A DNA stretch of 64,000 nt. Source: Candidatus Poseidoniaceae archaeon. GTDB lineage: Archaea > Thermoplasmatota > Poseidoniia > Poseidoniales > Poseidoniaceae. Position 1 is the stretch's first letter; each line of letters opens with the position of its first letter. The translations under genes and the position numbers were made by a program. Under the pieces are notes generated by a model. That model was not told the origin of the DNA, ran no database searches, and saw only the letters and a program-made list of their open reading frames with translations. Positions 26,095 to 59,425 of this stretch are shown piece by piece. The stretch is taken from NCBI GenBank assembly GCA_049616955.1, contig JBMZIJ010000005.1, positions 4,209 to 68,208 of the forward strand, written 5' to 3'.

Positions 26095-26904
26095 TTGGGC
26101 ATAGATTTCAATCTTGAATTGAGACGGAGAATTATAGGGCAGCATGGCCTGGAGACGTTTGTGCAAAAAATCGTGGTTCGCACAGATGATTTCCAACTCG
26201 CGTACCGCATTATGCACATGCTCCGTTCACGAAACATCGATGTTGAACAACGTTCACTAAAACAACCATTGCCTTCAAAGGATTCGATTTGGATTGGAAC
26301 TGTCGATGAAATTGCAAGCAAATCATCTGAAGGTCGACCGATCGCTGCAGATCTTTCGTCGCTTGAAATGGCACTTGAAGCTGCAATTTTTGCACTCAAA
26401 GGTTCGCAAAGAACACACCGCTTTGTCCTCGGTGTTGATACTGGACCACGACCTGGTCTTGCTTGGTTTACAGACGGTGTACTGATCGATACCAAACAAA
26501 CCGAATCCGTGAAGGAGTGCATCGAAACAATTGATTTGCTCATTGAACATCACGAATTTCAACACCTCCTTATTCGAATGGGAAAGGGTTCACCGTCCCA
26601 TCGCAACCGATTGGCCAATGCTATGCTTGAACGTGGGTACGTTGTCGAACTGGTCGATGAACGAAAAACCTCCCGAGGTCTCAATCGAAACCAACACAGT
26701 GTTTCAGCCATCCGAATTGCGACGTTAGCGGGTGAACGAATATGGGAAGTGGTTGACTTGCAGCCAACCGAAGGTGAAGTGAAGGAGATTCAACGTCGAA
26801 GCCGAATAAAAAGTCAAGGACGTGTGACAATTTCATCCGCATTAGCACGAAAAGTTGCATTAGGTGAACTGACGTTGACTGAGGCCATTGAACAACTCAC
26901 TTGA
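26095..26904 (+). CDS. YqgF/RuvX-like (RNase H fold) nuclease domain protein with N- and C-terminal extensions
   Basis: FVLGVDTGPRPGLAWF matches the G-x-D-x-G-x-x-x-G-x-A first strand, and ...VVELVDERKTSRG matches the DER-x-T-[ST] end motif of YqgF/RuvX. TTG start at 26095; ATGs at 26212/26218 are alternatives. Confidence 0.5.
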   Translation: MGIDFNLELRRRIIGQHGLETFVQKIVVRTDDFQLAYRIMHMLRSRNIDVEQRSLKQPLPSKDSIWIGTVDEIASKSSEGRPIAADLSSLEMALEAAIFALKGSQRTHRFVLGVDTGPRPGLAWFTDGVLIDTKQTESVKECIETIDLLIEHHEFQHLLIRMGKGSPSHRNRLANAMLERGYVVELVDERKTSRGLNRNQHSVSAIRIATLAGERIWEVVDLQPTEGEVKEIQRRSRIKSQGRVTISSALARKVALGELTLTEAIEQLT

Positions 26905-34580: not shown

Positions 34581-35018
34581 TCAATTTCCATTGAGTGAAG
34601 GCGGACGTGATGACCATATTGCCCACGTTCCTGTTGCTGTGGCTACAACTCGGTCCGCAACTCTCACTTCTCCTGCAAGGTGAGCGACGTGTTGACCTCT
34701 CCGAACAACTCTCCCTTCAGCAATTAACCGGTCACCAGGGCGTGCTGGAGAGAGGAAGCTTGTCGAGAGTTGGGTAGTTGCACACCATTCCTCGACTTTC
34801 AAGGATGCAACCAATGCACTGCCCAATGCAGAATCCAAAAGCACCATATGAATGCCTCCGTGTGCAACACCTCCTTTGTTGAGATGCGCTTCAGTCAGTG
34901 TGAGTTCCAGCCTTGATTGACCTGGTTTCCACAGCGTTCGTTCAATTCCAAGATCTGCCATGAATCCTGATGGGTCTGGTGGCGATGATAATGTCATATT
35001 GTTGTGGTGAAGAATCAA
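34581..35018 (-). CDS. PaaI/4HBT-type hotdog-fold thioesterase
   Basis: LNKGGVAHGGIHMVLLDSALGSA and ...GRVVRRGQHVAHLAGEV follow the PaaI-family pattern. Confidence 0.8.
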   Translation of the reverse strand: MILHHNNMTLSSPPDPSGFMADLGIERTLWKPGQSRLELTLTEAHLNKGGVAHGGIHMVLLDSALGSALVASLKVEEWCATTQLSTSFLSPARPGDRLIAEGRVVRRGQHVAHLAGEVRVADRVVATATGTWAIWSSRPPSLNGN

Positions 35019-35070
35019 CTCAATGAACCATACGTTTCAGGTTGAAATCTTCCTCAAAAAACTATGATTG

Positions 35071-35078
35071 ATATATTT
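35071..35078 (+). promoter_or_regulatory. TATA-like box ATATATTT about 24 nt upstream of the ATG at 35098 (leaderless-type promoter)
   Basis: This is the only AT-rich box in the 79-nt divergent gap. Its spacing to the ATG fits a leaderless archaeal transcript. Confidence 0.4.
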
Positions 35079-35097
35079 GAAGAGAATTCTATCACAT

Positions 35098-35331
35098 ATG
35101 AGTCGAGATTCTGGATCGAGAGAGTTCGTTACAGAGCCACAAGAATTACTTGAAGCACTCCGTAGGGCTCGTGCCCAATCCTATTGGCGCGAATCGAGTT
35201 CAACCTACCGTCAAAGCATCATCACTTGGATTGAGAAAACCAAGCGACGAGGCACCAAATTGAAGCGTATTGAATCGGTAGTTGACCATTGTGTACGTGG
35301 AGAACAGATTCCAAATCATCAGTCCTCTTGA
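35098..35331 (+). CDS. YdeI/OmpD-associated family-like small protein
   Basis: Pattern ...LLEALRRARAQSYWRESSSTYRQSIITWIEKTKRRGTKLKRIESVV resembles the C-terminal YdeI family signature (yi.WI..AK..eTR.kRI). Confidence 0.55.
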   Translation: MSRDSGSREFVTEPQELLEALRRARAQSYWRESSSTYRQSIITWIEKTKRRGTKLKRIESVVDHCVRGEQIPNHQSS

Positions 35332-35390
35332 CAGCATAAGGACACGTATTCTGTACAAAAATGAGCAATGAGGACTTCGATTCATGCAAA

Positions 35391-35990
35391 CTATTTCTTT
35401 TTGCTACGGTAGAGCATCACTGAAGGAATTACGAAAAGAAGTACTGTGATAATGATTCCAGTGGAGTCACTCAAACGGTCTGCAAATGTAACCTCAGTTC
35501 CATTTGAAACATAACTTGCAAGCGCCCAATCGTCGCCATCTGTTGGCTGATGATCGCCATCGACGACATTTCCAGCGATGGTGAAAAGCACTGCTTCTTC
35601 GCTTGTGGGTGCTATCCAGTCAACAATCCAGGATCTTTGGTTTGCCCCACTGTGTTCATGCGTTAGCTCTCCATTTTCAGTAATGTACGTCGAAGCATCT
35701 GTTGGCTCAAGCGTCCCTGCTGATGCCTTCAAATTGAATCCGCCTCGATGACCTTGTGCGGCTTCACTTGGTCCACCATCCAGTACTATGGTCAGCTGGT
35801 ATTTATCGCCGTGATCAAAGGTTTCAGGAATTCCTGTGATGGTGACGGATGTATCAACGCCTGGATTTTGACCATGGCAGGTACAACCTGTTTCAGAATA
35901 TCCGTCCATTCCATGGGAGGATGCATCAACGTGCATTCCTGAAAGCAAAAACAGTGGAAGTGCAATTGCCAGCAATACTCTCTGATTCAT
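35391..35990 (-). CDS. secreted, C-terminally TM-anchored protein with conserved C-x-C-H motif, unknown function
   Basis: Signal peptide MNQRVLLAIALPLFLLSGMHVDASS. GCTCHGQNPG is followed by a beta-rich domain. C-terminal TM IIITVLLFVIPSVMLY, then RSKKK. Confidence 0.6.
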   Translation of the reverse strand: MNQRVLLAIALPLFLLSGMHVDASSHGMDGYSETGCTCHGQNPGVDTSVTITGIPETFDHGDKYQLTIVLDGGPSEAAQGHRGGFNLKASAGTLEPTDASTYITENGELTHEHSGANQRSWIVDWIAPTSEEAVLFTIAGNVVDGDHQPTDGDDWALASYVSNGTEVTFADRLSDSTGIIITVLLFVIPSVMLYRSKKK

Positions 35991-41898: not shown

Positions 41899-44124
41899 AT
41901 GTCCGGCGAAGATAATGAAGTATCCTTACGTGTAGCAAAAGCCATCCCTTCCGACGTAGGTCATGGTCGAGCCCGAATTTCTGGTGAACATGGCCTTGAC
42001 CTCAAACCAGGCGATATCGTCGAAATTAAGGGTGAGAAGCGTTCTACAGCGGCCATTTACTGGCGCAGCCGTCCTGAAGATTCCAAAATGGACATCGTTC
42101 GCATCGATGGTATCATTCGAAAGAACGCTGGTGTCAGTCTGGGTGATCGAGTTACCATTTCCAAGGCTGAGGCAAAAGAATGCACCAAGCTAACGCTTTC
42201 CCCAGTTATGGCCAACAAGCAGAAGGTCAAGTTCGGGCCAGGAATTGAAGGCTTTGCCCGACGTGGCCTTTCCAAGCGGCCTGTCATGGCCGGCGATCGA
42301 ATCTTCATTCCAGGAATGACATTGTTTGCTGAGGCACTACCATTTGCAGTTGTCCAAACCACGCCAAAAGGGATCGTCAAGGTCACAAGCGATACGGACA
42401 TCATCATCAAGGACGAAGCCATTGACGACGAAGATGTTGGTCAATCCGAAGGAATCACGTACGAGGATGTCGGAGGCATCGGCCAGCAATTGCAGAAAGT
42501 TCGAGAGATGATTGAGTTGCCACTCAAGCATCCAGAATTGTTCCGACGCCTCGGCATCGACCCTCCAAAAGGGGTTCTTCTACACGGGCCGCCAGGTACT
42601 GGGAAAACCATGATCGCAAAGGCAGTTGCCACCGAGGTCAACGCACATTTCAAGGCCATCAACGGCCCTGAAATTATCTCCAAGTACTACGGAGAGTCAG
42701 AAAAACAACTGCGTGAAATTTTCGACGAAGCAAGTGAAAAGGCACCTGCCATTATTTTCATTGACGAAATTGATTCCATTTGTCCAAAGCGTGAAGATGT
42801 CAGCGGCGAAGTTGAGCGCCGTGTTGTTGCTCAGATGTTGACACTTCTCGATGGTATGCAAGGAAGGGACAACGTTGTCGTTATCGGTGCAACCAACCGA
42901 CGTGACGCCCTCGACCCAGCACTCCGTCGTGGTGGACGGTTTGACCGAGAAATCGAGATCGGCGTTCCTGACCGTGAAGGACGAAAGGAAATCATGGAAG
43001 TTCACACCCGTCAAATGCCGATTGCAGATGACTTTGAGGTCAATTGGGTTCTTGACAACACCTACGGGTTCGTCGGTGCTGACCTTGCTGCACTCGTCCG
43101 AGAAGCAGCCATGAAGGCTCTTCGCCGATACTTGCCTGAAATTGACCTTGACGAGGAAACAATCCCTCCAGAGGTCTTGGAAAAGATGGAAGTGAGGATG
43201 GATGATTTCCGAGATGCAATCAAGGACATCGAGCCATCTGCTCTACGAGAAATCTATGTCGAAGTCCCAGAAATCGCTTGGGATGAAGTCGGCGGACTTG
43301 ACGAGGTCAAAGATCGTCTCAAAGAATCCGTTGAATGGCCACTCACCAAGCCTGAAATTTTCGAGCATTTCAACATCAAACCACCACGAGGTATCGTCCT
43401 GTTTGGGGCGCCTGGTACTGGAAAGACCTTGCTTGCAAAGGCGATTGCTAACGAAGCTCAAGCCAACTTCATTTCAATAAAGGGTCCTGAGATGATTTCC
43501 AAGTGGGTAGGCGAATCTGAGCGTGGTATACGTGAAATTTTCAAGAAGGCAAAGCAATCGTCTCCTTCAATCATTTTCCTCGACGAGTTCGAGTCCATCG
43601 CAAGCATGCGAAACGCATCAAACGGAGAAGGAAGTGACGTAGGAAATCGAGTTGTGAACCAACTTCTCGCAAGCATGGATGGTGTTGAATCGCTTGACGG
43701 TGTCATCGTTGTTGCTGCTACGAACCGTCCAGAAATGATTGACCCTGCACTGTTGCGAAGCGGTCGATTTGAGCGTGTTCTCCACGTACCTCCACCAGAT
43801 GCACCTGCCCGTGAAGCAATTTTCGAAATCCATTCAAGTGGTATGCCTCTCTCCAAGTTCTCTGTCAAGGATCTCCTCTCAAGCCTCGACGGATTCACCG
43901 GTGCCGATATTGAAGCAGTGTGCCGAGAAGCCGCTCTTATCGCTATGCGTGAAGACAAGAAGAAGGTCGCAAAGAAGCACTTCGACGAGGCCATTACACG
44001 CGTCCGACCGACGGTAACGCCTGAGATGCTCGAGTACTATCAGAAGATGGAAACACGATTGACATCAGGTCTGTCGAACATCAAGCGAACTCGCGATTAT
44101 GGTTTCGGCATGGAAACGATGTGA
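41899..44124 (+). CDS. cdc48: Cdc48/VAT-type AAA+ ATPase (two AAA domains)
   Basis: N-domain collinear with Thermoplasma VAT (LRVAKA...GDIVEIKG...IVRIDG). Two Walker A boxes GPPGTGKT and GAPGTGKT, with DEID/DEFE Walker B. Alternative ATG at 41866. Confidence 0.95.
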
Positions 44125-44177
44125 GCACGGAAACGGTCAAGTCCTTTCTGTGTTCACGGAGTGGTGAGGCGAATCGA

Positions 44178-44420
44178 ATGGCATCCAGTTTTGGACAGGA
44201 AATGCTTGGTCGTCTTGTTCAAGACAAGAAGGGAAAAGAACTCGGAAAGCTTACTGATTTGGTGATCGATGTATCGAATGGTGAAATCTCAGAACTTCTG
44301 ATTCGTTGTGCCGACAACATCGATGCCAGCCGCCTCCCATTTCCGTTGAAAGACGGTGCAGTCGCCATACCATCAACAGAAGTCGCTACATTTGGACACG
44401 TGATTCTGCTCAAAATCTGA
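44178..44420 (+). CDS. small PRC-barrel domain protein (CdpB-like)
   Basis: GRLVQDKKGKELGKLTDLVIDVSNGEISELLI fits the PRC-barrel pattern. GGTGAGG box upstream of the ATG at 44178. Size (80 aa) matches the stand-alone archaeal PRC-barrel proteins. Confidence 0.7.
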   Translation: MASSFGQEMLGRLVQDKKGKELGKLTDLVIDVSNGEISELLIRCADNIDASRLPFPLKDGAVAIPSTEVATFGHVILLKI

Positions 44421-44506: not shown

Positions 44507-46123
44507 TTGGCGGCCGAGCGGAGTAGAAATTTCAAGCGAATTGGGCTTCAATTTGCATTTTGGGCTGTTCTCAGTCTTCTCCTCCTCACCATCCTTCAGA
44601 ATTTTATCAACATCAGTCAGACCGATCAATTGTCCGCTTATGATGACGGTTGGGATGACATGTCTGCATTCCGAGAAGACATCAAGGCCATGGGTGTTGA
44701 AACCAAGTCACTGGTAAGTAGCCCTTTGCTCCTGGCAGATATTGAAGATCCTCGCAATACCACCTTCATCATCGCTGGAGTTGAACGAGATACACTCTCC
44801 TTCCCTCAATTTGATGAAGACGGATTTATCACCATTGCAACTGAGGATGGATACTCTCCATCAGAAGTCGACGCCATTGTTGAATTTGTCGGCAATGGAG
44901 GGACGGTCATCGTTCTCGAAGACTTTGGTTATGCTGGAAGCATTGGTGAAGCGTACGGAGTTCGGTATTCTGGATACCAACTGTACGATACAAATTACGT
45001 CGCGGAACTCGATTACAATTACATCTGGATGTGTGTTCAAGCAAGCCCTTGCGGTATGAACGGAACAGAACTTGATCCTGCGACCATTGAGGAACACGAG
45101 CGATGGTCTTCAGAAGTCGGAGAACATCCTTGTGCAGAACTTGATGGACAATCCATGACGTTGAACGAAGCTGGCGTTTGTTCTCACCATTGGGTCAAGA
45201 GTGCAGGCGACCTCGGTCGAATTGAATACAATGCAACCTACACCATGCTTCTCAACAACGTTACAGGACTTGAAATCGTACCAGGTGTACGTGGCGCACT
45301 CAAGGACGTTAACGTCCGAGCCATCACGAGCAATCAAGCAACAGTTGACGTCAACGGTGATGGCGAACTTTGGGTAAGCAATGAGCAAACAAGCGAAACA
45401 CCCGACCTGTGGGGTCAATTCAATCTCTCAATCGAAGCCTGCGCTTCGACCAACTGCGACCCAGATGAAGGTGGTCGAGTGTTCTTCATCGCTGATGGTA
45501 GTGCTTTGATCAATGCCATTTACGATTATGAAGGGTTCAACGCAGGTGAATATGGCAAGACAGACAAATTCATTCCAGCGAACGACAACCGAAAGTGGGC
45601 ACTCGACGTTATTGCTGAATCACTGATGAGTACAATCGAGGGCGAAGAGGGGCAACCTGCGGAAAACGCCATGGTCATTTTTGATGAAAGTCGACATCCA
45701 CAGAATGCACTTCTTGCAGATTCCTACAACACCGTGTACTTCCTCTTGGTCTACTTTACTGGCGAAGGATTGGCTATGTTAGCGCTCTTCGTGGTTCTCT
45801 TCATCACATTTGAAGCCGTTTTGCTCAAGAAGCGTGACCCAGAGCCATGGCGACATGTCTTCAGTATCATCTACTACGGGTTTGGTGATGCGAATCGATA
45901 CACGTACTATGCGAAAACGGAGAAGATACGGCAGGTCTTCTTGTCGAAAGTGCGTAATCAAAACGGTCTCACCGTTGAAGAATTCCATGCCATGTCGGCA
46001 AAGGAGTTGGTCGGACTCATCCAAGATCCAGTTCTAGCAAAGTTTGCCATTGAACCAGGAAAATATTCTCTTGAACAATCGGTTGCCTTGGTCAAACGAA
46101 TCAAGGCATGGGGGCGAAGGTGA
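44507..46123 (+). CDS. DUF4350-like membrane protein (N-terminal TM, extracytoplasmic domain, second TM, cytoplasmic tail)
   Basis: SAYDDGWDDMSAFREDIKAMGVET...FVGNGGTVIVLEDFGYAG matches the DUF4350 pattern seen in haloarchaeal MoxR/DUF58 clusters. TTG start with AGGTGAGAG 2 nt upstream. Confidence 0.65.
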   Translation: MAAERSRNFKRIGLQFAFWAVLSLLLLTILQNFINISQTDQLSAYDDGWDDMSAFREDIKAMGVETKSLVSSPLLLADIEDPRNTTFIIAGVERDTLSFPQFDEDGFITIATEDGYSPSEVDAIVEFVGNGGTVIVLEDFGYAGSIGEAYGVRYSGYQLYDTNYVAELDYNYIWMCVQASPCGMNGTELDPATIEEHERWSSEVGEHPCAELDGQSMTLNEAGVCSHHWVKSAGDLGRIEYNATYTMLLNNVTGLEIVPGVRGALKDVNVRAITSNQATVDVNGDGELWVSNEQTSETPDLWGQFNLSIEACASTNCDPDEGGRVFFIADGSALINAIYDYEGFNAGEYGKTDKFIPANDNRKWALDVIAESLMSTIEGEEGQPAENAMVIFDESRHPQNALLADSYNTVYFLLVYFTGEGLAMLALFVVLFITFEAVLLKKRDPEPWRHVFSIIYYGFGDANRYTYYAKTEKIRQVFLSKVRNQNGLTVEEFHAMSAKELVGLIQDPVLAKFAIEPGKYSLEQSVALVKRIKAWGRR

Positions 46124-47382
46124 AGGCTATGTGGACACGTAAAGCATCCTTCACCTTCACGGGAGGCATTGCCCTCATTCTCATTGGGATGATGATCACC
46201 AACAATCAAATGATGATTCTTGGATTAACGCTCATTACCTTCATCGTCGTGAACTCATGGGTTTCTGGCCATGGTGATATCGAAGTTCAACGTACACTGT
46301 CAGCAGATAACTTGTACAAGGGTGACGATTTGTACGTCGAATTGCTCGTGACCAATCGGTCGAATCGCAGAACTCAACTTTTGGATGTCTACGACAACAT
46401 CCCTCACGAAATGAAGCTGCGCAGTGGTTTGAACCAGATGCGTCTCAATCTCAGACCGGGCGAGAGCGCTCGAATCCGCTACGTCTTGCGTTGCCCATTG
46501 CGTGGACATTATTCGATTGGGCCAGTCTCTCTCCGAGTTCGCAACACGTTCAATCTCGGTGTCGAAGACATGTATGTTGACCATCATTCTGATATTGTTA
46601 TCTTCCCTCAAATCAAGGAGGTCGAGGAAGCATTCCTGCGATCACGTACCCCGAAAATGTACACAGGTGCAACAACACTTCGAACACCTGGTCAAGGTTC
46701 AGAATTTTATTCACTCCGAGAATATGTCCCAGGCGACCCATTCAAGAACATCAACTGGAAGGCATTTGCACGAACTGGAGATCTCATGGTCAACGAGAAG
46801 TGTCGAGACGCTGTTACAGACTTGTACATTCTTCTCGACTCAAGGGACGTTGCCCGAATTGGAACCGTTCTCAAGAACCCATTGGAAATGGGGACAGTCA
46901 GTGCTGCAAGCCTTGCTGCCTTCTTCCTAAAGCGAAGAGACAGTGTAGCCCTCGGAATCTATGGCGATGGACTTGCCTATCTCCCTCCAGATACTGGTGA
47001 CAAGCAGTATTTCAAAATCCTCAGTTCACTTGCTGGCGTAAAACCTGAAGGAAGCATGCCACTCCAAGCAGTAACCAACTCGCTGAGTGGGCGATTCAGT
47101 CGAGGCAGCCCCGTCTTCGTCATATCCTCCTGCGAAGGTGATGGAACAGTTCCTGCAGCCGTTCGTGACTTGGTCGGACGTGGGCATGAGGTAACCGTCC
47201 TTTCACCGTCGAGCATTGACTTTGAGCGCCTTGTTTCACGAATTCCAAGAATGTCCTATGAAGTACTCAAACTCGAACGACAGAATCGATTGACGACTCT
47301 CGCAGGTTCAGGAGCTCAAGTCATCGATTGGATGCCTGACATGGATTTGTCACAGGCCATTATGCAAGTGAGGGGATTTTAG
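46108..47382 (+). CDS. DUF58 family protein (vWA-like, MoxR-associated family)
   Basis: Hallmark GQGSEFYSLREYVPGDPFKNINWKAFARTGDLMVNE. Two N-terminal TM helices. Overlaps the upstream gene by 16 nt. Confidence 0.85.
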   Translation: MGAKVKAMWTRKASFTFTGGIALILIGMMITNNQMMILGLTLITFIVVNSWVSGHGDIEVQRTLSADNLYKGDDLYVELLVTNRSNRRTQLLDVYDNIPHEMKLRSGLNQMRLNLRPGESARIRYVLRCPLRGHYSIGPVSLRVRNTFNLGVEDMYVDHHSDIVIFPQIKEVEEAFLRSRTPKMYTGATTLRTPGQGSEFYSLREYVPGDPFKNINWKAFARTGDLMVNEKCRDAVTDLYILLDSRDVARIGTVLKNPLEMGTVSAASLAAFFLKRRDSVALGIYGDGLAYLPPDTGDKQYFKILSSLAGVKPEGSMPLQAVTNSLSGRFSRGSPVFVISSCEGDGTVPAAVRDLVGRGHEVTVLSPSSIDFERLVSRIPRMSYEVLKLERQNRLTTLAGSGAQVIDWMPDMDLSQAIMQVRGF

Positions 47383-48585: not shown

Positions 48586-48822
48586 TTACTTCCGTGCTCG
48601 CATCATTTGGATGAAACGCCCAATGATTTCGTTCAAAATAAGCATGCTTAACGCCAAACCAACCGTTGCAATCCATTGATACCAAACAACATCAATGGAA
48701 GACCAAAGAATTTGGTTAATGAAAATGAAACCAATGATGGAACCGATGAAGATTATCTTTTCAAGCATCACTGGATAAGACGAACCCTTTGACTCGTTAC
48801 GCAGCAGAAGTGTCTCAACCAT
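48586..48822 (-). CDS. 78-aa two-TM membrane protein, last gene of the Roadblock/coiled-coil operon
   Basis: ATG lies 9 nt after the stop of the 1,044-aa gene, with GGTGAG 4 nt upstream. Two hydrophobic helices and a basic C-terminus (MMRARK). Confidence 0.5.
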   Translation of the reverse strand: MVETLLLRNESKGSSYPVMLEKIIFIGSIIGFIFINQILWSSIDVVWYQWIATVGLALSMLILNEIIGRFIQMMRARK

Positions 48823-48831
48823 ATGCTCACC

Positions 48832-51800
48832 TCAGAAATCCAATTCTGAGAGTTGATCATGCAAGGCATCAAGCCGTGGATCACGTGTCGGTTCCTCGAC
48901 CTTGGGCGTTCGAAGTTGCCGTTCAGCATCAAGCCGAGCCAACTCAGCCTCAAGGTCAGCACGGTCTTCTTGAATCGGAATCTGTCGTTCTTCCTCAACA
49001 ATCGTTTCAGAAGGCTCAGCATCAACAGGAGCAGGCATTTCTACCCATTCATCGGACAATTCGATGACGGCAGGTTCGGAATCAAGCGAGACGCTTTCTT
49101 CGACAACCAGTGTTGGTTGGATGTTTTCCATCATATCGTCCATCACTGGCGTTCGTTGACCAACGGGGATTGCTGTGCGCTCAAATGGAAGGAAACCATC
49201 TCGTTGGAAATCCCACATGGCTCCACGTGGAACACCCTTGGTTAATCCGGATGCATCGATTTGTGTCAACAACTCTTCGAGAACTTGAGCTGTTTGTTCA
49301 AGTGCAATCGCTTCACCAGCATCACGCTGGTCTGCTTCAAGATAGATATCATCGAGAGCAACTCGAATCAATCGTCGAGTCTCTACAGCAACACTCGGTA
49401 ATGCTTCAGGACGCATGCAATTCATGCGCAATGCTTCAATTTCTTCAGGAGGTGCACCTAGGTTTCCAAGTTGATCGAGAACGTTTCGCATTCGACGAAG
49501 CATTGTAATTGAACGGTCGTAATCCTCGAGGATGCCTTCAAGATCGAGAATAAGATGACCTACAGTTTCACCAAGTTGATTCTCCAATCGCTGTTGAACA
49601 GACCATCGTGCTAGGCCTCGAACGGCACCAGCGGTTTGCGGGACTTGCCGTTCGAGAAGCGTCATGACCTCACTGCTCAGCAAGTGACGTGGTGTCGCAG
49701 CGATGTGATCGACAGTGGACTGAACAACTTGTAGAGCCCTCTCGACCGCCCGGTCAAGAAGAACAACGGAGTAGCCCAAGGTTCGAGCATGTTCAAGTCG
49801 GTCAAGGACAGGGCCAAGACCACGGAATGTTGCATCATCGTTGAGTAGGGCTTGAGCAAGTGGCTCCTCATTCAGTCGGGCTCGGAGTCGCTCAGCCTCT
49901 GCAATATCAGCAACAGCCTCCTCATGGGCGTCAGTTAACGCTTCAGCACGGGCAATCAATCCTGACAGTTCTGTTTCAGCATTGCCTCTGCGTGCTCCTA
50001 GGTTGCCAAGTTCGGTTAGCAATTCCTTTCGCTCACCCATGAGTTCACGCATTTCAGAATGAAGTTGCATGCGACGTGCTTCATCCTCAGCGAGGCGTTG
50101 TCGTTCTTCTTCTGCCCGACGACGACTGGCGAGTGTTTCTGCTTCAATTTGGTCTAAGCGTGCTTGAGCAGCACGAATCTTTTCTTCGGATGCATTGCTC
50201 TTTGATTGAGCACTGGCTTGCCGATCTCGAAGGGCAGTGACTTGTTCTTCAAGCGAACGTAGGCGCCGTTCTTCAAGTTCAATTTGCTCACGGATTGAAG
50301 CCAGTTGTTGAGCGTTTGATTCCAAGTCTGCTCGTGTGGTTGCTTCCTTGTTGGAAAGCGTCTCAAGTTCATCACGAAGCGCAGCACTGCTTTCCGTATC
50401 GCCCAAAGCCTTGGCCAATTCGGAGGCTCGTTCACTGAGTTGATGTTCAAGTTCACCAACGCGACGAAGTAAACGATCTGCACGCTCTTCTGCTTGTTCC
50501 ATTCGAGTCCTTGATTCAGAAACAGTGACTTGAACACGATTCAATTCATCGTTCTTCGATTGAATAGCTTCGTTTTGCTCACCGGTCGATTGTTGAATCG
50601 CATCAAGACGAACCAATGCTTCAGTACGTTCTTTCTCAGCCTCTTGAAGTTGACTTGTCAAACCTGCATTGGTACGCATGAGCGTATCTGCACGTCGTTC
50701 GGACTCCTCAAGGCGGCGACGTAATCCAGCATCAACACCGGCAAGAGGTGCTGAAGTTGGCAAGGATTGTGCGGCCTCTTGACCGCCAACGTGGATGCTC
50801 AATTTTGATCGAACGAGTCGAACATCATCGAGACCAATTTCAAAGCCATACATACTCATCAGCCGATGCATCATTGAATCTCGACGCTTCTCTGAGCGAG
50901 TACGTACGGTTGAAAGAGAATCAACGAATTGTTTGAGCGTGAATTCAGAAACATCGCCTGTCGATGATGAAACCATGGTGCCAGAGGCAAGTCGATGCAA
51001 TTTCAAGACACGCTTGCTTTCGGTCAATCCCATCATCGCATCTTCGAACGATTGGCCGCTTGCAGCCATGGCAACTGGAAGGCCATTGTTGAGTGCAAGC
51101 GATACTGCTTTCTCACTCACACCCGCCTTGAGGTGGCCTGTAACACGCTCTTCAAGGGCTGCAGAAAGCATGGACATCACCGCATCAGCACCTCCTTTTC
51201 CTTCTCGAAGAACGAAACCATCGGGAAGTGTAGCAGCGCCCTCGGCATAGGTTCCGATCTCACCATCAAGTTTCGCTGCAACATCGGTCAATAAGCGAGC
51301 ATGATTGGCATCGAGTTCTGTCCAGATTGCCAACACAATCGTGCTACTGGATGCGATGAGCAAAGATGCATCACCCATGTTAAGCGACGCATAGCCGTCG
51401 TTGCCACCGCCGAGTTTCGATTGCTGAACACTCATCGATTCGGAAAGCGTAGCAACGGTGGCTGACAATTCCTCAGCCTTCCCGGGTAGATCGCCCATGC
51501 TATCGATGAGGATGCCCTGGTCTGCAGCCAGGGCGCCTCGAACGTGCTCGTAATCCGAAAGCGCTTGCAGAACAGCGGAAATGTTCCGGGCGAAGAGACG
51601 GTCTGTCAGTGAATTGCTCGCACCTAGCCCCTGTGTATCTGCTTGGAACTCAAAAGCTTCTGGGAGAAGAGAGGCAAGTTCTGCAAATCCATGCAACGAA
51701 CAGGTTGAAGCGACGAGCCGATGTTGATTCTTTTCGGCCTCTTCGAGGGCTGCTCGTGCATCGGCTCCGCCAAGGAGTTTGGTTGCACTCGTACCTTCAC

Positions 51801-51966
51801 AGATCCATCCAACAATTCGTCCAGCACGAACCAAACGATGGCCGAACGGTGTCTTTCGTCGGCCAACCCACGTCGTGATGAACCCATGCTCGAAGGGTTG
51901 AATGGAGCCAGCAGCAACATTCACTTCATCATCAAATCGTTCAATATGTGGTAAGTCAAACATCAT
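48832..51966 (-). CDS. 1,044-aa cytoplasmic protein: N-terminal domains including a Roadblock/LC7-like segment, ~290-aa coiled coil, helical C-terminal domain, acidic tail
   Basis: The internal segment NISAVLQALSDYEHVRGALAADQGILIDSMGDLPGKAEELSATVATLSES...ASLLIASSSTIVLAIWTE fits the Roadblock pattern. A long E/R/L/A/Q-rich heptad region runs LRRRLEESERRADTL...LRARLNEE. No TM helix and no P-loop. Confidence 0.75.
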   Translation of the reverse strand: MMFDLPHIERFDDEVNVAAGSIQPFEHGFITTWVGRRKTPFGHRLVRAGRIVGWICEGTSATKLLGGADARAALEEAEKNQHRLVASTCSLHGFAELASLLPEAFEFQADTQGLGASNSLTDRLFARNISAVLQALSDYEHVRGALAADQGILIDSMGDLPGKAEELSATVATLSESMSVQQSKLGGGNDGYASLNMGDASLLIASSSTIVLAIWTELDANHARLLTDVAAKLDGEIGTYAEGAATLPDGFVLREGKGGADAVMSMLSAALEERVTGHLKAGVSEKAVSLALNNGLPVAMAASGQSFEDAMMGLTESKRVLKLHRLASGTMVSSSTGDVSEFTLKQFVDSLSTVRTRSEKRRDSMMHRLMSMYGFEIGLDDVRLVRSKLSIHVGGQEAAQSLPTSAPLAGVDAGLRRRLEESERRADTLMRTNAGLTSQLQEAEKERTEALVRLDAIQQSTGEQNEAIQSKNDELNRVQVTVSESRTRMEQAEERADRLLRRVGELEHQLSERASELAKALGDTESSAALRDELETLSNKEATTRADLESNAQQLASIREQIELEERRLRSLEEQVTALRDRQASAQSKSNASEEKIRAAQARLDQIEAETLASRRRAEEERQRLAEDEARRMQLHSEMRELMGERKELLTELGNLGARRGNAETELSGLIARAEALTDAHEEAVADIAEAERLRARLNEEPLAQALLNDDATFRGLGPVLDRLEHARTLGYSVVLLDRAVERALQVVQSTVDHIAATPRHLLSSEVMTLLERQVPQTAGAVRGLARWSVQQRLENQLGETVGHLILDLEGILEDYDRSITMLRRMRNVLDQLGNLGAPPEEIEALRMNCMRPEALPSVAVETRRLIRVALDDIYLEADQRDAGEAIALEQTAQVLEELLTQIDASGLTKGVPRGAMWDFQRDGFLPFERTAIPVGQRTPVMDDMMENIQPTLVVEESVSLDSEPAVIELSDEWVEMPAPVDAEPSETIVEEERQIPIQEDRADLEAELARLDAERQLRTPKVEEPTRDPRLDALHDQLSELDF

Positions 51967-52337
51967 ATCACCTTGGTTCGGTTAAAATTCCATTCTTGTC
52001 GCAAGCGTTCGAGCTCGTATCGCCACACGCCTTTTTTCCCATCTCTTCCAGAGAGATAGACAAACAAGTCGCTGTCGAATTGATCGATGAGGCTCAATCT
52101 CCGCCCCTCAATCCATACTTCAAACAATGACCCGAGGTTGAGTTGTTCAGCCAATAAGCAGCAATCTGCCCACTCAGTACGCTGTTCTTCTACAGTTTCC
52201 GGCCATTTTTTGGTCGATTGAACGACGGTTCCAAACTGATCCACCAGGCGAACGTGACTCACGCCATCAAGTCCGCAAAGTTCAGGAAACAACTTGTCCA
52301 GCATGTTAGCCCAAACCCTTTGACAGCAACGTGCCAT
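51963..52337 (-). CDS. Roadblock/LC7 (MglB-like) domain protein
   Basis: MLDKLFPELCGLDGVSHVRLVDQFGTVVQS...LLAEQLNLGSLFEVWIEGRRLSLIDQFDSDLFVYLSGRDGKKGVWRYEL follows the Robl_LC7 alpha-beta-alpha pattern. Its stop overlaps the downstream ATG (ATGA). Alternative ATG at 52304. Confidence 0.6.
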   Translation of the reverse strand: MARCCQRVWANMLDKLFPELCGLDGVSHVRLVDQFGTVVQSTKKWPETVEEQRTEWADCCLLAEQLNLGSLFEVWIEGRRLSLIDQFDSDLFVYLSGRDGKKGVWRYELERLRQEWNFNRTKVI

Positions 52338-52391
52338 TCAAGAACTTTGCCGAAACTCTTCCCCCGTAGGGGGATTTGTCAACAAAAATCA

Positions 52392-52410
52392 AAATTCCAA
52401 CTGCAATTTT
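52392..52410. promoter_or_regulatory. copy of the AAATTCCAA[C/T]TG[C/G]AA[T/A]TTT motif
   Basis: AAATTCCAACTGCAATTTT is 16/19 identical to 3482-3500. It lies in the 249-nt divergent gap between the Roadblock operon and the TtuA-like gene. Confidence 0.35.
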
Positions 52411-52495
52411 TCAAAACACTACCCGCGGAAGGGAATAACAAGCGCTATATCCGCGCATGAAAGCAATTCCATGTTGCAAAAAATTGTGTAAAAAA

Positions 52496-52522
52496 TCAAT
52501 TGGAAATTTAAAATTGCAATTG
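52496..52522. promoter_or_regulatory. CAATTG-N14-CAATTG motif copy (TCAATTGGAAATTTAAAATTGCAATTG)
   Basis: 24/27 identical to 3487-3513, with the same 20-nt hexamer-to-hexamer spacing. Followed by a T-rich TATA-like GTATTTTTTATTTCC about 50 nt upstream of the ATG at 52587. Confidence 0.4.
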
Positions 52523-52586
52523 TATTTTTTATTTCCAAGAAATCACCAATCGGAGGCGTTTAATGCAGGTGATGTGAGGATTCTTC

Positions 52587-54994: not shown

Positions 54995-55054
54995 AGGATG
55001 TCCCCTTCTTCACCAACCATCCAAGCACACCCTTGAACATTGTTGCCAAGCAGT

Positions 55055-56866
55055 ATGCAAACAGTCGGTGGTTTCTTCATCGAAACCATTCCTGCTACAA
55101 TCATGCTCTGGGGCGATGTCGATGAGGCGATTAAGGCTGAACGCTTGCTCCGCATCCAAAGAATCGAGCGATTGAGTACCATCTGTGCTTTGTTTTGCTT
55201 GAGTGGAGCCATCTGGTTGGCTTGGCCTGTCCTCAAAGACGCCTTCGTTGGCGATGCAAGTTTACTCACCGGCCTCGGTATGCCCGTTCTTGTTCTGTTA
55301 TGGGGTATTGTCATCCAAGATTTGATTTTGGACGATCCTCGTGCAAGAACACGTATTGGTGCAGCTTCGAGCGTCGTATGGCCTGTTTTGCTGATGTTTG
55401 CATTGCGCGCCTATTCAACGAACACAACCGATATTCTTGCTTCAGCACTCTTTGCTGGATTGGGTCTAGCGATGTATCAATCCTCAGCGAACACATTACG
55501 CGGTGGAATCGATGTGATGCGCTTCCGAGCCATGATGACCAGCATCGGGGCACTCACCGTTCTTGGTATGCTCGTTGGTGATCGTGCAGGTGAAACCTGG
55601 ATTGTCGAACCAGTCGATTGGGCACACCCTCTCTTGAGCGTGTTTGTTCTTGGCCATGTTGGCTATCTTTGGTTCATTGGAGACGATATGCGGGAAGAGC
55701 GGAAAGCGTTCCGTCAAGAATTGGATTCCATCGAGAATCGTCTGCTCGTTCTCCGCTCGGAAGGTGCAGCCGTTGACCAAGCCAGTAGCCTTGTCATGAC
55801 GGCCAAGGAGGAAGGACACATCGATCCAGTCTTTGGAATGCGACTTCTTCTCGAAGCAAGTGAAGACATTGAGCGTTCCCTCTCTCTTGCAACCGATGTC
55901 GATGTTGTACGCAGTGAAGCATTGCTCGTCATCCAGCATGCAGAAGAATTGGCTCCATTGGCCAAGCGACCTCGCAAATCCTACGAAATGGGTGAGCGGG
56001 AAGTCAACCTTGGATCCTTACGCGAAGCCGAGAGTTTGTTCCGACAAGCTAAGCGTAGAGCACAAGAGATTGTGACGTGGTGGGAGCAAGCAGAGGAAGC
56101 AATTCGAACGGCGGAAGAACTCCTCACCGGTCAATCTGGAGCCACCATTGACAATTTGCGACAAATTATTCGCGATGCGAAAAAGCAACTCGATCGTGAA
56201 GCACCAAAGAAAGCCTTTGAGTTGGCATGTGTGATTCCCATTCAATTCCAAGCCGATGGTGACGCCAAAGAACGTGCTGTTGAAGTTCTTGGTGATGCAG
56301 CAAAGGCGCTCAAGGCTGCTGATGGATTTGATACTTCAGACCTCGAACGCCGTCTTGACCAGGCTGAGTCCGCTCTAGAAGCAGGTGATACAGGTCAAGC
56401 CATTGGCCTAGCAGAAGGTGTCATCCGTGTCATACAAATCGAACGTGAAGCCATGGAGACCGTTCGTCGCGCTCTTCGACAACGCAAGAAGATCACTGAA
56501 CGATTCGAGGGTTTTGAAGATGAAGAAGCATGGTCAAATCGATTCAAACAAGTTCAATCCGCAGCCGATGAACGTCAATGGAGTCATGCTGCAACCTTGC
56601 TTGAGCGACTGACGATTGACCTTGATGCGCTTGGTAATGAGCAGAGTGAAGCCCAAACATTGCTTGACTTCGTTCGACAAGAATGGGCCGTGTTGAGAAA
56701 TCAATGCAATGCTTCCAGTATTCCCGTCACTGATGATGACATGAAGCAAACCGAGGCTGCCATCGCCCTTGCTGAAGAACGATTGAGTGGTGGCAAGGTT
56801 GAAGCCGCCCTGGAACAACTTGGGAAAGCTGATGCTTCAATGGAACGATTGCGAAGGCGGGTTTAA
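55055..56866 (+). CDS. membrane protein with about 6 N-terminal TM helices and ~390-aa helical, A/E/R-rich cytoplasmic region, unknown function
   Basis: ORF 55040..56866, with the first ATG at 55055. The hydrophobic N-terminal ~215 aa are followed by a long predicted-helical region. No recognisable motif. Confidence 0.65.
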   Translation: MQTVGGFFIETIPATIMLWGDVDEAIKAERLLRIQRIERLSTICALFCLSGAIWLAWPVLKDAFVGDASLLTGLGMPVLVLLWGIVIQDLILDDPRARTRIGAASSVVWPVLLMFALRAYSTNTTDILASALFAGLGLAMYQSSANTLRGGIDVMRFRAMMTSIGALTVLGMLVGDRAGETWIVEPVDWAHPLLSVFVLGHVGYLWFIGDDMREERKAFRQELDSIENRLLVLRSEGAAVDQASSLVMTAKEEGHIDPVFGMRLLLEASEDIERSLSLATDVDVVRSEALLVIQHAEELAPLAKRPRKSYEMGEREVNLGSLREAESLFRQAKRRAQEIVTWWEQAEEAIRTAEELLTGQSGATIDNLRQIIRDAKKQLDREAPKKAFELACVIPIQFQADGDAKERAVEVLGDAAKALKAADGFDTSDLERRLDQAESALEAGDTGQAIGLAEGVIRVIQIEREAMETVRRALRQRKKITERFEGFEDEEAWSNRFKQVQSAADERQWSHAATLLERLTIDLDALGNEQSEAQTLLDFVRQEWAVLRNQCNASSIPVTDDDMKQTEAAIALAEERLSGGKVEAALEQLGKADASMERLRRRV

Positions 56867-59425
56867 TCAAACCAATTGCCTTCGAATGAGATCGTCAATG
56901 TTGATGCCACTTGGAAGACCAAGGTCAACAGGCATACCCGCAATGGTGGTGATGATACCGTACAAGTGGAGATAAATTCCGTGTGGAGCCTGTTGTTCAC
57001 CGTTGTAAGGAATCTTCTTCCAAAGGTTTGATTTCATGTAGAATTTTGAAACGGATTGGTCTTTCGAATGAACAATCCATGCATTCGCCCGACCTGCATG
57101 CTTTCGTGCAGTCGTTGAACCGAGCCGAGGAGGAACAGTTACAGTATGGAGGACTGGCCAGTCACGCATCCAATCACCTGCTGAATCGATGAGCATCGTC
57201 ATCTTGGTTTGCTCAGTCGCCATTGCATCGAGAAGCCCCAATTCGTTGAGGATTCGAACCAAAGACCGCACGTGAGGATGGCGAGGTTCACTCACTCGCA
57301 ATTCGCGTGCTATGCGTACAGCAGTGTTTGGTCGGCCAGCATCGAGGTGCAACAATGCAACAACAACTCGTCCGTGACTCCATTTCGTTGTTGGCAAGTC
57401 TGCATGTTCTTCGTGTTTTTTCATGAACGATTCAAGCATTGAGAGCGCTTCTTCGCTTCGGTCATCCAACCGCATACGGGCACAATCACCCAACAACATC
57501 AGACGGTCTGCAGGCTTGTTTCGATAGGTTCTGTTCCCTCTCGGATTGCCCTCAGCCGTTCGAGTGAGCAGGTCGATGTTTCGCCGCATCAATGGATCGA
57601 TGCTCAAAACCGGTTGTGAGGCGCTTGGAATTTCACGTTTCGAATCGAGAACAGCAGCAAACCATTGCAATCGTGCAGCCTCGATATCGCTCTTATTCAG
57701 CAAGGCAAGTCGGGGTGCAGCCTCGGGCAGATCACGTTGACAAAGGCTTGCAGCAGCAAGGATAAGGCGAGCAACTTGTGCATCTCTTCCGGTCTGAAGT
57801 GCGAGCAAGGAAACCGCGTTCTCCTCAGCCTCTTCCCACCGATTTAAGCCAGCAAACAATTGCATCTTCGCTCCGGTTTGTCGAAGCAAATCCAAGCCCT
57901 GGGTTGATGATTCTGTTGGATTCAAAATTTCGTCGTAGTGCTCGATTGCTCGAGTCCACTTGTCCTTTGCAATGAGTTCTGTAAACGGACGTTGTTTGAG
58001 GTAAATCATGTCCTCCATCTGTGTTAACATTTGACGCTGCTCACTGATGCTTGCATCGAAGGTGATGTCATCGAGTTTTGAACCAACCTGAAGCGACGTT
58101 AACCAGATGAGAAGGAAACAAATTTGGCCACCAGAAGCCAGCATCCACGTCAACTCTTCCATTGCATCTTTCTCGACATACGTGCAAAGTGTACCTTCCC
58201 AATCACCGCAAGACGCTCCTTGTGGCAGGAAGCTAGAATCCCAGAATGTAATCATCGCAAGGGCAAGGAGAAGCATCGATTGTCCAGCAAATCCTGTGAA
58301 ACAGAAATTCAGAACTTTGGCCTGTTGGCTTCGCTCCGCTCGCAACAAACGGCTATCTGCGAGACGAATACCTCCACGTCCGGACACATCTTGAACGTCG
58401 AGGAAAAGGATTCGAGCAACTTCGTAAACGAACAGAAAACCGACCAAAGCAACGTTGAGAAGAAGGAACAACAGGATCGATGTGACCAATGGAACGCGTA
58501 AACCAGGGTCAGGAATGTTGGAAAACAACTCGATAAGGAAGAATCCAAGAATGCCACCTTCTTCCATAATGGTTGCTTGTTCACGGTATTCTGGTAGGTC
58601 GATAACTCGGTCAGAATGTGTGAACAATTCAGGTGCGACAATGATGGCAATCAATGAGAGTAAGGTGTTGATGGCAACAACGGGCATGGCTAAGGTGTTG
58701 AGATGGACAATTCGTGCAATCACTTGCTGTCGAGCATTTGGTGAATGATTGTGGAACGGTGAAGGATTACCTTGAGCGATTTGTGCTGAGGACTGACGTA
58801 GTGCTTGCCATGAGGTTCCCATGACGCGTCCATACGCAACAATCGATGGTGAGAAGGCGAGCAACAACGAACCGCTCAATCGATGCGTAAAGGAAACGCC
58901 CCATGATCCAAGAAGCGAATAAAACAAACCGACGCCAATGAACCAAAACATGGTGAGGGCAATGTACGCAGTGTTCCGTGCACCACTTGACTCTTGCAAT
59001 TTCGCTTTTCCATGACCAATCGGTTTGATGATTTGGGCGCCAAGCGATGAACCGGATGAGATTACTGCCGGCAGAATAATGAGAATCAAGGCTAAGGAAA
59101 TATTCGGTGCATGGAAACCATCACTCATATCCTGTGCGTAGATGATGTACTCAAAGAACAGCAACAAGGCTCCAGTCAATGCAAACAGGTAGGTTGCAAC
59201 ACCGAAGCGCATCCCGCGAGAGCGAAGTAAATCACGAGCTTCACCGAAGGATTCAGTCACTGTATGTACTTCATAACGCATTGGTCCGGTCTCAAATGCA
59301 ACCTGCAAACCGCGTAATTGTCGTGGGACGACAGTACGCCAAAACAGCAGTGCGATGATACCTGCTAAAATCAATGGAACGACGGCGATGGAGGCAAACC
59401 CCTCAACAATCACCGGCCCAGTCAT
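56867..59425 (-). CDS. 852-aa polytopic membrane protein with TPR-like helical C-terminal half, unknown function
   Basis: About 12 hydrophobic helices in the first ~450 aa, then ~400 aa of helical-repeat-like sequence. A TCCATAAAAGG box lies about 25 nt upstream of the ATG. No recognisable catalytic motif. Confidence 0.7.
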   Translation of the reverse strand: MTGPVIVEGFASIAVVPLILAGIIALLFWRTVVPRQLRGLQVAFETGPMRYEVHTVTESFGEARDLLRSRGMRFGVATYLFALTGALLLFFEYIIYAQDMSDGFHAPNISLALILIILPAVISSGSSLGAQIIKPIGHGKAKLQESSGARNTAYIALTMFWFIGVGLFYSLLGSWGVSFTHRLSGSLLLAFSPSIVAYGRVMGTSWQALRQSSAQIAQGNPSPFHNHSPNARQQVIARIVHLNTLAMPVVAINTLLSLIAIIVAPELFTHSDRVIDLPEYREQATIMEEGGILGFFLIELFSNIPDPGLRVPLVTSILLFLLLNVALVGFLFVYEVARILFLDVQDVSGRGGIRLADSRLLRAERSQQAKVLNFCFTGFAGQSMLLLALAMITFWDSSFLPQGASCGDWEGTLCTYVEKDAMEELTWMLASGGQICFLLIWLTSLQVGSKLDDITFDASISEQRQMLTQMEDMIYLKQRPFTELIAKDKWTRAIEHYDEILNPTESSTQGLDLLRQTGAKMQLFAGLNRWEEAEENAVSLLALQTGRDAQVARLILAAASLCQRDLPEAAPRLALLNKSDIEAARLQWFAAVLDSKREIPSASQPVLSIDPLMRRNIDLLTRTAEGNPRGNRTYRNKPADRLMLLGDCARMRLDDRSEEALSMLESFMKKHEEHADLPTTKWSHGRVVVALLHLDAGRPNTAVRIARELRVSEPRHPHVRSLVRILNELGLLDAMATEQTKMTMLIDSAGDWMRDWPVLHTVTVPPRLGSTTARKHAGRANAWIVHSKDQSVSKFYMKSNLWKKIPYNGEQQAPHGIYLHLYGIITTIAGMPVDLGLPSGINIDDLIRRQLV

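Follow-up and report, generated by a model that had tools for sequence, protein, structure and literature searches.

The Roadblock regulatory module is familiar from several described systems. In Ragulator (LAMTOR), a membrane-anchored protein, LAMTOR1, is combined with the Roadblock heterodimers LAMTOR2/3 and LAMTOR4/5. FrzS and AglZ, which act in small-GTPase-controlled polarity, offer a different design: an N-terminal alpha/beta regulatory head, a pseudo-receiver, on a long coiled coil. In the polarity module of Myxococcus xanthus, MglB dimers flank an MglC dimer on both sides (PMC7949163), and a complex of RomR, MglC, and MglB has been described (PMC10329633). The actinobacterial conservons are four-gene units that include a histidine kinase, CvnC, and the GTPase CvnD (PMC4316618). 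Here we describe a three-gene unit that invites comparison with all of these. It lies on the minus strand of a 64,000-nucleotide stretch of DNA from a Candidatus Poseidoniaceae archaeon (GenBank assembly GCA_049616955.1, contig JBMZIJ010000005.1, positions 4,209 to 68,208), which we call the window. Its genes encode, in order, a small Roadblock/LC7 protein, a multidomain protein of 1,044 amino acids (aa) that we call the giant, and a 78-aa protein with two predicted transmembrane segments.

Few planktonic archaea are as abundant as the Poseidoniales (Marine Group II). To our knowledge none has been cultured, so that their cell biology is known from genomes only. What is new at this locus is the combination of a Roadblock domain set between two domains of unknown family, a coiled-coil rod, a unique C-terminal domain, and a dedicated two-transmembrane partner, all within one lineage. 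A preliminary description of this DNA considered the architecture undescribed, and we agree: no database source names the family, and literature searches on Poseidoniales with Roadblock, MglB, or GTPase returned nothing relevant and no paper linking Poseidoniales to Roadblock proteins. We tentatively propose that the unit is a Poseidoniales-specific, co-translated operon that builds a coiled-coil scaffold, associated with the membrane and bearing a Roadblock platform on one of its ends.

RESULTS

The giant and its Roadblock/LC7 domain

An exhaustive phmmer search of 1.84 billion representative proteins returned 105 proteins, all of them members or fragments of the giant's family. Ten relatives are full length (1020-1089 aa) and one is a 737-aa partial; they are 31-55% identical and align end to end. 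A Pfam scan of the window's giant gave no match at E<=1. We modeled residues 1-425 with AlphaFold2 (AF2) and obtained three packed domains, D1 to D3, at a mean predicted local distance difference test score (pLDDT) of 80.6 and a predicted template modeling score of 0.67 (Table 1). In the central domain, D2, the order of helices (a) and strands (b) is a-bb-a-bbb-a, exactly the topology of Roadblock/LC7 domains, which span about 100-120 residues: helix 129-137, strands 142-149 and 152-158, helix 164-185, strands 192-197, 200-207, and 210-217, and helix 222-234. The pLDDT of this block is mostly 79-91, with a dip to 64 near residues 181-190.

The model was compared with the PDB by Foldseek. The top 50 matches, which filled the list with hits to D2, were all Roadblock, MglB, or LAMTOR chains (E 1e-5, probability 1.0, template modeling [TM] score on the target up to 0.74-0.79), Asgard Roadblock proteins and MglB among them. 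A PDB profile search with the giant's family led to the same fold: CvnB5 (3leq) came first (residues 133-223, E 1.5e-4), with LAMTOR4 and Asgard Roadblock proteins next. The Pfam family Robl_LC7 (PF03259) was matched by 4 of 12 giant orthologues (best E 6e-4), and one family member bears the automatic JGI name "predicted regulator of Ras-like GTPase activity." We conclude that, by model and by profile alike, residues 129-234 of the giant are a Roadblock/LC7 domain. The preliminary description had placed a Roadblock segment at about residues 128-235 from the sequence alone, and the structural and profile searches recover it at nearly the same boundaries.

The segments on either side of D2 had been called PATAN/DUF4388-like. 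For this call we found no statistical support. At E<=10, DUF4388 (PF14332) matched neither D1 nor D3 in 15 orthologues, nor was it among the 25 Pfam families listed for full-length giant orthologues; no other Pfam family recurred at that threshold among 15 orthologues of either domain. The order of D3, b-a-bbb-a-b, is compatible with that of DUF4388, which is a resemblance only. D3 had no sequence match in the PDB. D1 consists in the model of strands 27-34, 42-47, 50-57, and 63-66, helix 67-77, strand 82-88, and helix 91-100. D1 and D3 have no detectable similarity to each other, and we rejected an internal duplication as their origin.

Rod, C-terminal domain, and tail

The segment that follows the N-terminal domains is rich in heptads and free of proline over 294 residues (Table 1), in keeping with the uninterrupted coiled coil of about 290 residues in the preliminary description. 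Perhaps the giant is a chromosome or repair protein of the SMC, Rad50, or MukB kind, or a JetC/LmuB-type defence protein? The NCBIfam models SMC_prok_B and Rad50 do match it (E 5.6e-14 and 1.8e-9), as does the PADLOC model JetC (E 3.5e-5), and a fragment in the JGI data is named "SbcCD ATPase subunit." However, these matches are confined to residues 415-700, where they meet only the arm regions of the models, and they lie about 10-fold below the curated cut-offs (50.9 against 567 bits). Neither the giant nor the small Roadblock protein has a Walker A motif, as had been noted before, and we found no match of the giant to a head, hinge, or zinc hook; it has a Roadblock module toward one end and an unrelated domain toward the other. 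Because only arms match, far below cut-off and without a Walker A motif, we read this segment as a coiled-coil rod and not as part of an SMC protein. The SMC, Rad50, and JetC assignments are rejected, this alternative is effectively refuted, and no defined family matches the giant.

Beyond the rod lies the most conserved part of the protein. Its mean column identity of 68% (alignment A4) is the highest in the giant. A PDB profile search with this C-terminal domain returned FliS only (E 0.04), and when 5.8 billion proteins were searched with its profile, the matches were 131 family fragments and nothing outside the family. Where these fragments are named they are called "hypothetical," except for two that JGI named automatically, one as SbcCD ATPase subunit and one as MerR regulator. 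From its composition, our guess is that the domain is helical.

A variable tail completes the giant. It is acidic, as first described, with a net charge of -14 over residues 951-1000, and it closes with an amphipathic peptide, [RQK]-L-[SA]-x-[LIV]-[DE]-[FLM]-COOH, that was seen in 10 of 11 aligned relatives (those reaching the C terminus) and in about 65 loci. In some orthologues it reads LESRLSNIEF or LEARLGDIDI. The leucines of this peptide (coding region 48835-48880) are spaced as in a MIM1 helix of ESCRT-III, L-x-x-[RQDE]-L-x-x-[LI]. We did not adopt a MIM1-like reading: the L-x-x-x-L-x-x-L spacing fits, yet the end combines acidic and hydrophobic residues where a MIM1 helix is basic. About 35 residues upstream of the terminal peptide there is another conserved helix, R-x-x-LE-x-ELA-x-LD.

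A long rod with conserved globular ends would also suit a purely structural filament of the cytoskeleton or envelope, crescentin-like or golgin-like, in which the Roadblock domains would serve as dimerization knobs and no NTPase would take part. The membrane partner in the operon, the lack of a nearby GTPase, and the presence of eukaryotic Roadblock adaptors (dynein LC7 and LAMTOR) among the Foldseek matches agree with such a filament. However, a rod of about 290 residues is short compared with those of typical filament formers, and the strong conservation of the C-terminal domain, outside the rod, points to specific binding and not to bulk structure. We consider a purely structural filament unlikely.

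The small Roadblock protein

The open reading frame (ORF) of the small gene runs for 124 codons. Its true start is most likely M12 (ATG 52304-52302), which gives a product of 113 aa, because the 11 additional N-terminal codons fall inside a noncoding block that is conserved at the nucleotide level. The close family of the protein comprises 17 clusters at >=60% identity, most of them called as 113 aa, and comes throughout from marine metagenomes or metagenome-assembled genomes (MAGs) labeled "Euryarchaeota."

Is this protein a Roadblock protein, as the preliminary description had it? The window's own sequence gave no match in scans of Pfam, NCBIfam, or PADLOC. We therefore turned to a divergent set of 17 syntenic orthologues, encoded directly upstream of the giant in distant loci. 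Robl_LC7 was matched by 11 of the 17 (best E 2.2e-7), and the window's protein aligns with the set over its full length at 19-32% identity. We accept it as belonging to the Roadblock/LC7 family because of this full-length alignment and because it occupies the same syntenic slot as the orthologues that match Robl_LC7. Hence, the earlier assignment stands, but it stands through the orthologues and not through the window's protein itself.

Structural comparison adds weak support. The AF2 model of the small protein, built from a shallow alignment, is of low confidence (pLDDT 56) and has the element order a-bb-a-bbb-a. Among the 50 Foldseek matches listed for it, 47, including the 17 best, are Roadblock or LAMTOR proteins, at weak scores (E ~1e-2, TM score ~0.3). 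A PDB profile search with the narrow alignment gave no matches; with the divergent orthologues added, it gave a Thorarchaeota Roadblock protein, again weakly (E 0.098). Family hidden Markov models (HMMs) found no further Roadblock paralogues in the window.

A Roadblock pair without a nearby GTPase gene

Across the 64 kb, a Walker A motif occurs in two ORFs only, one of 1026 aa and CDC48. There is no gene for a small Ras-like GTPase in the window, and no GTPase Pfam family is annotated in the flanks that we fetched for related loci. An MglA/MglB-type module would have its cognate GTPase within a few genes, and this locus does not. Is that absence remarkable? In the survey of Wuichet and Sogaard-Andersen, 328 of 749 prokaryotic MglB homologues were orphans, that is, more than four genes from any MglA, and as of 2014 none of these orphans had been characterized (PMC4316618). 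The preliminary description was correct that the unit lacks a GTPase gene, but with orphans so common the absence is not remarkable in itself.

Two Roadblock modules could still serve a GTPase that is encoded far away. In this alternative, the small protein and the giant would be an orphan MglB-type GTPase-activating protein (GAP), or a GAP/co-GAP pair of the kind that MglB forms with MglC or RomY, for a distant small Ras-like GTPase, and the giant would be a polar landmark or rod similar to FrzS, AglZ, or RomR. In that role, the giant would control polarity, archaellum placement, or the choice of division site. This alternative overlaps with the scaffold that we favor and differs from it in making GTPase control the core. 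The D2 fold is closest to Asgard Roadblock proteins, MglB, and CvnB, the JGI name quoted above speaks of Ras-like GTPases, orphan MglB homologues are frequent, and MglB is known to act together with another Roadblock protein and with a scaffold (PMC7949163, PMC10329633). Nonetheless, no small GTPase is found in the window or the fetched flanks, the archaeal MglA proteins (Group 4) were almost confined to methanogens in the Wuichet survey (PMC4316618), and the GAP function of MglB comes without a catalytic-residue signature in the sequence. We regard GTPase control as the core function as somewhat unlikely.

The three genes as one unit

The junctions between the genes are tight. The TGA of the small gene and the ATG of the giant overlap in the 4 nucleotides (nt) ATGA at 51963-51966, and a GGTGAT box stands directly ahead of this overlap. 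At the other junction, the TGA of the giant is followed by a 9-nt spacer with a Shine-Dalgarno-like box and then by the ATG of the 78-aa gene (Table 1). These features recur in relatives. A stop-GGTGA-(3-6 nt)-ATG pattern is found 3' of the giant in nearly all of ~70 related loci, and across the same number of loci the box ahead of the giant's ATGTTT start reads GGTGAT, GTGAGTGAT, or TAGGTGA. No terminator-like sites or hairpins were found inside the three-gene unit on the minus strand. The GGTGAT box and the ATGA overlap argue for translational coupling of the small gene and the giant and, as judged from these sequence features, the three genes are one translationally coupled unit. The ORFs, the overlap, the spacer, and the recurring boxes all agree with the tight unit that was originally described. 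Since the ATGTTT context is conserved in relatives, the true start of the giant is suggested to be the second ATG (MF-x-LP), for a length of 1043 aa.

At the 3' end of the unit, the stop of the 78-aa gene (48586) abuts the stop of a plus-strand gene for a 400-aa membrane protein (48585) with zero bases between them, which leaves no room for terminators. Abutting stops are also seen in related loci, for example, at 13719/13720 of locus L001.

The 78-aa protein has two hydrophobic segments, at about residues 17-42 and 45-68, separated by a four-residue turn, as expected of the tiny two-transmembrane protein of the preliminary description. Both ends are predicted to be cytoplasmic because the C terminus is basic. 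Two motifs mark the family, R-x-E-x-x-G-[KR]-x-Y-P near the N terminus and E-x-x-G-R-x-x-Q near the C terminus, and homologues that bear them lie downstream of the giant in about 55 loci. A Pfam scan of the 78-aa protein gave no meaningful match, and we dismissed an NCBIfam match to Cas3 (E 0.021) as chance.

Distribution and gene order

We scanned one genome per GTDB species and found relatives of the giant encoded in 291 species genomes. The best 80 of these 291 come from genomes labeled Poseidoniales, Poseidoniaceae, or Poseidonia, or from generic Thermoplasmatota or "Euryarchaeota" MAGs, with the exception of one contig in a Rhodobiaceae MAG. The original MG-II assembly, CM001443.1, is among the genomes that bear the giant. 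The order small gene, giant, two-transmembrane gene holds in ~55-65 loci with giants 50-97% identical, wherever the contig is long enough. The wider order is kept as well: ThrRS, two unknown genes, PyrB, PyrI, TtuA, the trio, the 400-aa membrane protein, DUF58, DUF4350, a PRC barrel, and CDC48.

Deep lineages, in which the giants are only 31-40% identical, give a finer picture. Locus L091 (giant 38% identical) has both small genes. In L092 (40%) the two-transmembrane gene is present, but no ORF lies upstream where the small Roadblock gene would be. The contig of L088 (34%) starts at the giant, ahead of which the slot of the small Roadblock gene would lie, and the two-transmembrane gene is present. 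L086 and L087 (31%) have the small Roadblock gene, and their two-transmembrane gene follows an inserted gene. In L090 (33%) both small genes are absent. The two-transmembrane homologues of L088, L091, L092, and L086 were recognized by HMM at E 1e-19 to 2.5e-7. Hence, co-occurrence of the three genes is confirmed in the many loci counted above but fails in L092 and L090, and the trio is typical, not universal. In the deep lineages it is the two-transmembrane gene, more than the small Roadblock gene, that stays with the giant.

In L086, the most divergent lineage (and likewise in L087), the inserted gene encodes a 448-aa type I membrane protein with FG-GAP repeats and stands between the giant and the two-transmembrane homologue (14578-14859), within the stretch 13221-14859 of L086. 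The latter had been overlooked by gene callers.

Could the three genes be neighbors by order-wide synteny only, with unrelated functions? The region from ThrRS to CDC48 does keep its order across Poseidoniales, and the absence of the small Roadblock gene from L092 and L090 would fit. However, the overlap and the 9-nt spacer with their GGTGA boxes are kept in dozens of species, the unit has no internal terminator, and the two-transmembrane gene stays downstream of the giant even past an inserted gene. Moreover, when two neighboring genes both encode Roadblock modules, a lack of any relation between them is unlikely. We judge mere synteny to be improbable.

The upstream noncoding element

Ahead of the small gene lies a conserved element of fixed length. 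It reads, in order, CAGTTGG (52403-52397), an A/T-rich block, the hairpin CCCCC-TAC-GGGGG (52373-52361), a 31-nt box (52352-52322), TTGGGC, and the ATG at 52304. In about 70 species-level loci CAGTTGG stands 99-100 nt ahead of the ATG equivalent to M12. The GC hairpin is clade specific: CCCCC-TAC-GGGGG in the window, CCCCC-TTTA-GGGGG in a sister clade, and other sequences elsewhere. The box of about 31 nt is near-invariant, is followed by TTGAGC or TTGGGC, and occurs once in the window. The element is more conserved than the protein that it precedes. A structured RNA was considered and rejected, as RNAalifold gave no consensus fold for 26 sequences and Rfam gave no match. To judge by its sequence, the element probably combines a promoter or operator with a conserved 5' leader.

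Farther upstream is an inverted repeat (Table 1) whose arms are kept and whose loop varies across loci of the window type and of the L034 type. Between TtuA and the small gene, at 52497-52528 on the minus strand, two CAATTG palindromes lie 14 nt apart around TTTTAAAT and are kept in window-type loci. These palindromes may be divergent promoter or operator elements shared by TtuA and the operon.

The preliminary description called the region ahead of the unit the longest intergenic region in the window. It is not: the spacer measures 249 nt (282 nt to M12), and the gaps at 35018-35391 (372 nt) and 26543-26897 (353 nt), which contain short dubious ORFs only, are longer.

Neighboring genes

The DUF58 protein encoded at 46108-47382 on the plus strand is 91-94% identical among Poseidonia-type loci, compared with ~65% for TtuA, ~72% for the 400-aa membrane protein, and ~55% for the giant. 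The genes for DUF4350, DUF58, and the membrane protein overlap or abut as an operon, with no MoxR ATPase gene between them. Downstream of CDC48, a 99-aa ORF (44121-44420, plus strand; ~80 aa in related loci) holds the position of the PRC-barrel gene of related loci; it is four genes from the trio and on the opposite strand. PRC-barrel proteins are listed, with FtsZ and SepF, in the euryarchaeal division machinery (PMC11188069). Two large conserved genes without a Pfam family, at 55040-56866 (plus strand, 608 aa) and 56867-59425 (minus strand, 852 aa, multipass membrane protein), hold their place beside PyrB in all related loci.

Table 1. Coordinates of the features of the three-gene unit in the window
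Feature	Residues	Position	Strand	Remarks
Inverted repeat GCGCGGA-N20-TCCGCGG		52423..52456	-	Upstream of the fixed-length element
Fixed-length conserved upstream element		52302..52403	-	~70 species-level loci
Small Roadblock/LC7 gene		51963..52337	-	ORF of 124 aa from ATG 52337
GGTGAT box		51967..51972	-	3' end of the small gene, directly ahead of the giant's ATG
Gene for the giant multidomain protein		48832..51966	-	ORF of 1044 aa
Giant D1, predicted beta-rich alpha/beta domain	27-100	51667..51888	-	AF2 pLDDT 85-92
Giant D2, Roadblock/LC7 domain (by model and profile)	129-234	51265..51582	-	AF2, Foldseek, PDB profile, Pfam
Giant D3, predicted alpha/beta domain b-a-bbb-a-b, then long helix	251-353	50908..51216	-	AF2 pLDDT 85-95
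Giant coiled-coil rod	408-701	49864..50745	-	294 residues, proline-free, 40-56% charged, heptad periodicity
Giant conserved C-terminal domain	~702-940	49147..49863	-	Most conserved part, alignment A4
Giant variable acidic tail	941-1044	48835..49146	-	Ends ...LHDQLSELDF in the window
Spacer, giant stop to start of 78-aa gene		48823..48831	-	9 nt, GGTGAGCAT, Shine-Dalgarno-like GGTGAG box
Gene for the 78-aa two-transmembrane hairpin		48586..48822	-	ORF

DISCUSSION

We favor, tentatively, the reading of the unit as an operon for a membrane-associated scaffold. Roadblock/LC7 modules form homodimers or heterodimers through the beta-sheet edge and helix alpha2. The giant would dimerize through its rod. 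Its Roadblock domains would then pair or stack with the small Roadblock protein, by analogy with LAMTOR2/3 or MglB/MglC, and the conserved N-terminal peptide of the hairpin protein, predicted to be cytoplasmic, would tie the assembly to the inner face of the membrane. The resulting platform might recruit or regulate an NTPase whose gene lies elsewhere, a small GTPase most likely; alternatively, it might be no more than an adaptor. Binding of the actual cargo or partner would fall to the conserved C-terminal domain and the terminal peptide. Two further observations speak for such a scaffold. The gene inserted in L086 itself encodes a membrane protein, so that the membrane theme is kept, and the end-to-end alignment of all ten full-length relatives indicates constraint on the whole giant.

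Several findings weigh against the scaffold. The whole 20-kb neighborhood is syntenic across the order Poseidoniales, and gene order alone is for this reason weak evidence of a functional link. Because the small Roadblock gene is missing beside the giant in L092 and both small genes are missing in L090, the small protein is not an obligatory partner everywhere. When the small protein was compared with the Roadblock domain of the giant by hhalign, the two aligned in register at a nonsignificant score (E 0.022, probability 2%). Lastly, the small and two-transmembrane proteins evolve fast: they are ~30% identical where the giant is 55%, TtuA 65%, and DUF58 92% identical.

What might the scaffold do? 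Polarity, division, and surface organization are candidate roles. The last of these was raised in the preliminary description in connection with the giant surface proteins encoded elsewhere in the window, and we found no evidence that links the trio to them. A bolder version holds that the unit encodes a machine that works independently of any GTPase: a membrane-anchored Roadblock and coiled-coil assembly that would be an archaeal functional relative of Ragulator-type platforms, fused to a rod. It would have no counterpart among described systems, and its unique C-terminal domain and terminal peptide, both conserved, would position a cell-surface, division, or motility apparatus. We think this version unlikely; if true, such a machine would do so in abundant, uncultured ocean archaea. 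More generally, this order-wide operon is a concrete, testable candidate for how Poseidoniales organize their membrane, poles, or division site, and it would offer a case for studying those prokaryotic Roadblock/MglB proteins that stand as orphans. By their small size or modular build, the three products lend themselves to heterologous expression and complex prediction.

How does the unit compare with what is known? The arms of SMC, Rad50, and JetC share composition and heptads with residues 415-700 of the giant, but the giant has no ATPase heads, hinge, or hook and stays far below the cut-offs of these families. FrzS and AglZ resemble the giant in general outline, in that a globular regulatory domain is followed by a long coiled-coil rod. 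In them, however, a pseudo-receiver takes the place of the Roadblock domain, no homology to the giant was detected, and it is the Poseidoniales family alone that has the conserved C-terminal domain and the membrane partner.

Ragulator resembles the proposed assembly, by analogy only, in that a separate small anchor would hold a Roadblock platform at the membrane, and LAMTOR chains rank among the best matches by structure and by sequence. The anchor of the Poseidoniales unit would be a two-transmembrane hairpin, whereas that of Ragulator is a lipidated, wrap-around protein. Ragulator also lacks a coiled-coil rod and a C-terminal domain such as the giant has, and no Rag-type partner is known for the Poseidoniales unit. 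With the conservons the unit shares a Roadblock component, in that CvnB provides the best PDB sequence-profile match to D2; unlike a conservon, it has no histidine kinase, CvnC, or CvnD.

The closest counterpart, alongside Ragulator, is the module of MglB, MglC, and RomR in M. xanthus, where two divergent Roadblock modules are likewise encoded together. D2 matches MglB at TM scores of 0.63-0.72 in Foldseek, and we propose that in the Poseidoniales unit, too, Roadblock dimers would stack into hetero-complexes on a scaffold (PMC7949163, PMC10329633). Unlike the M. xanthus module, the Poseidoniales family is archaeal, lineage specific, and known from genes alone, and its unit, with no MglA nearby, sets one Roadblock module inside a 1,044-residue coiled-coil protein and adds a two-transmembrane protein to the operon.

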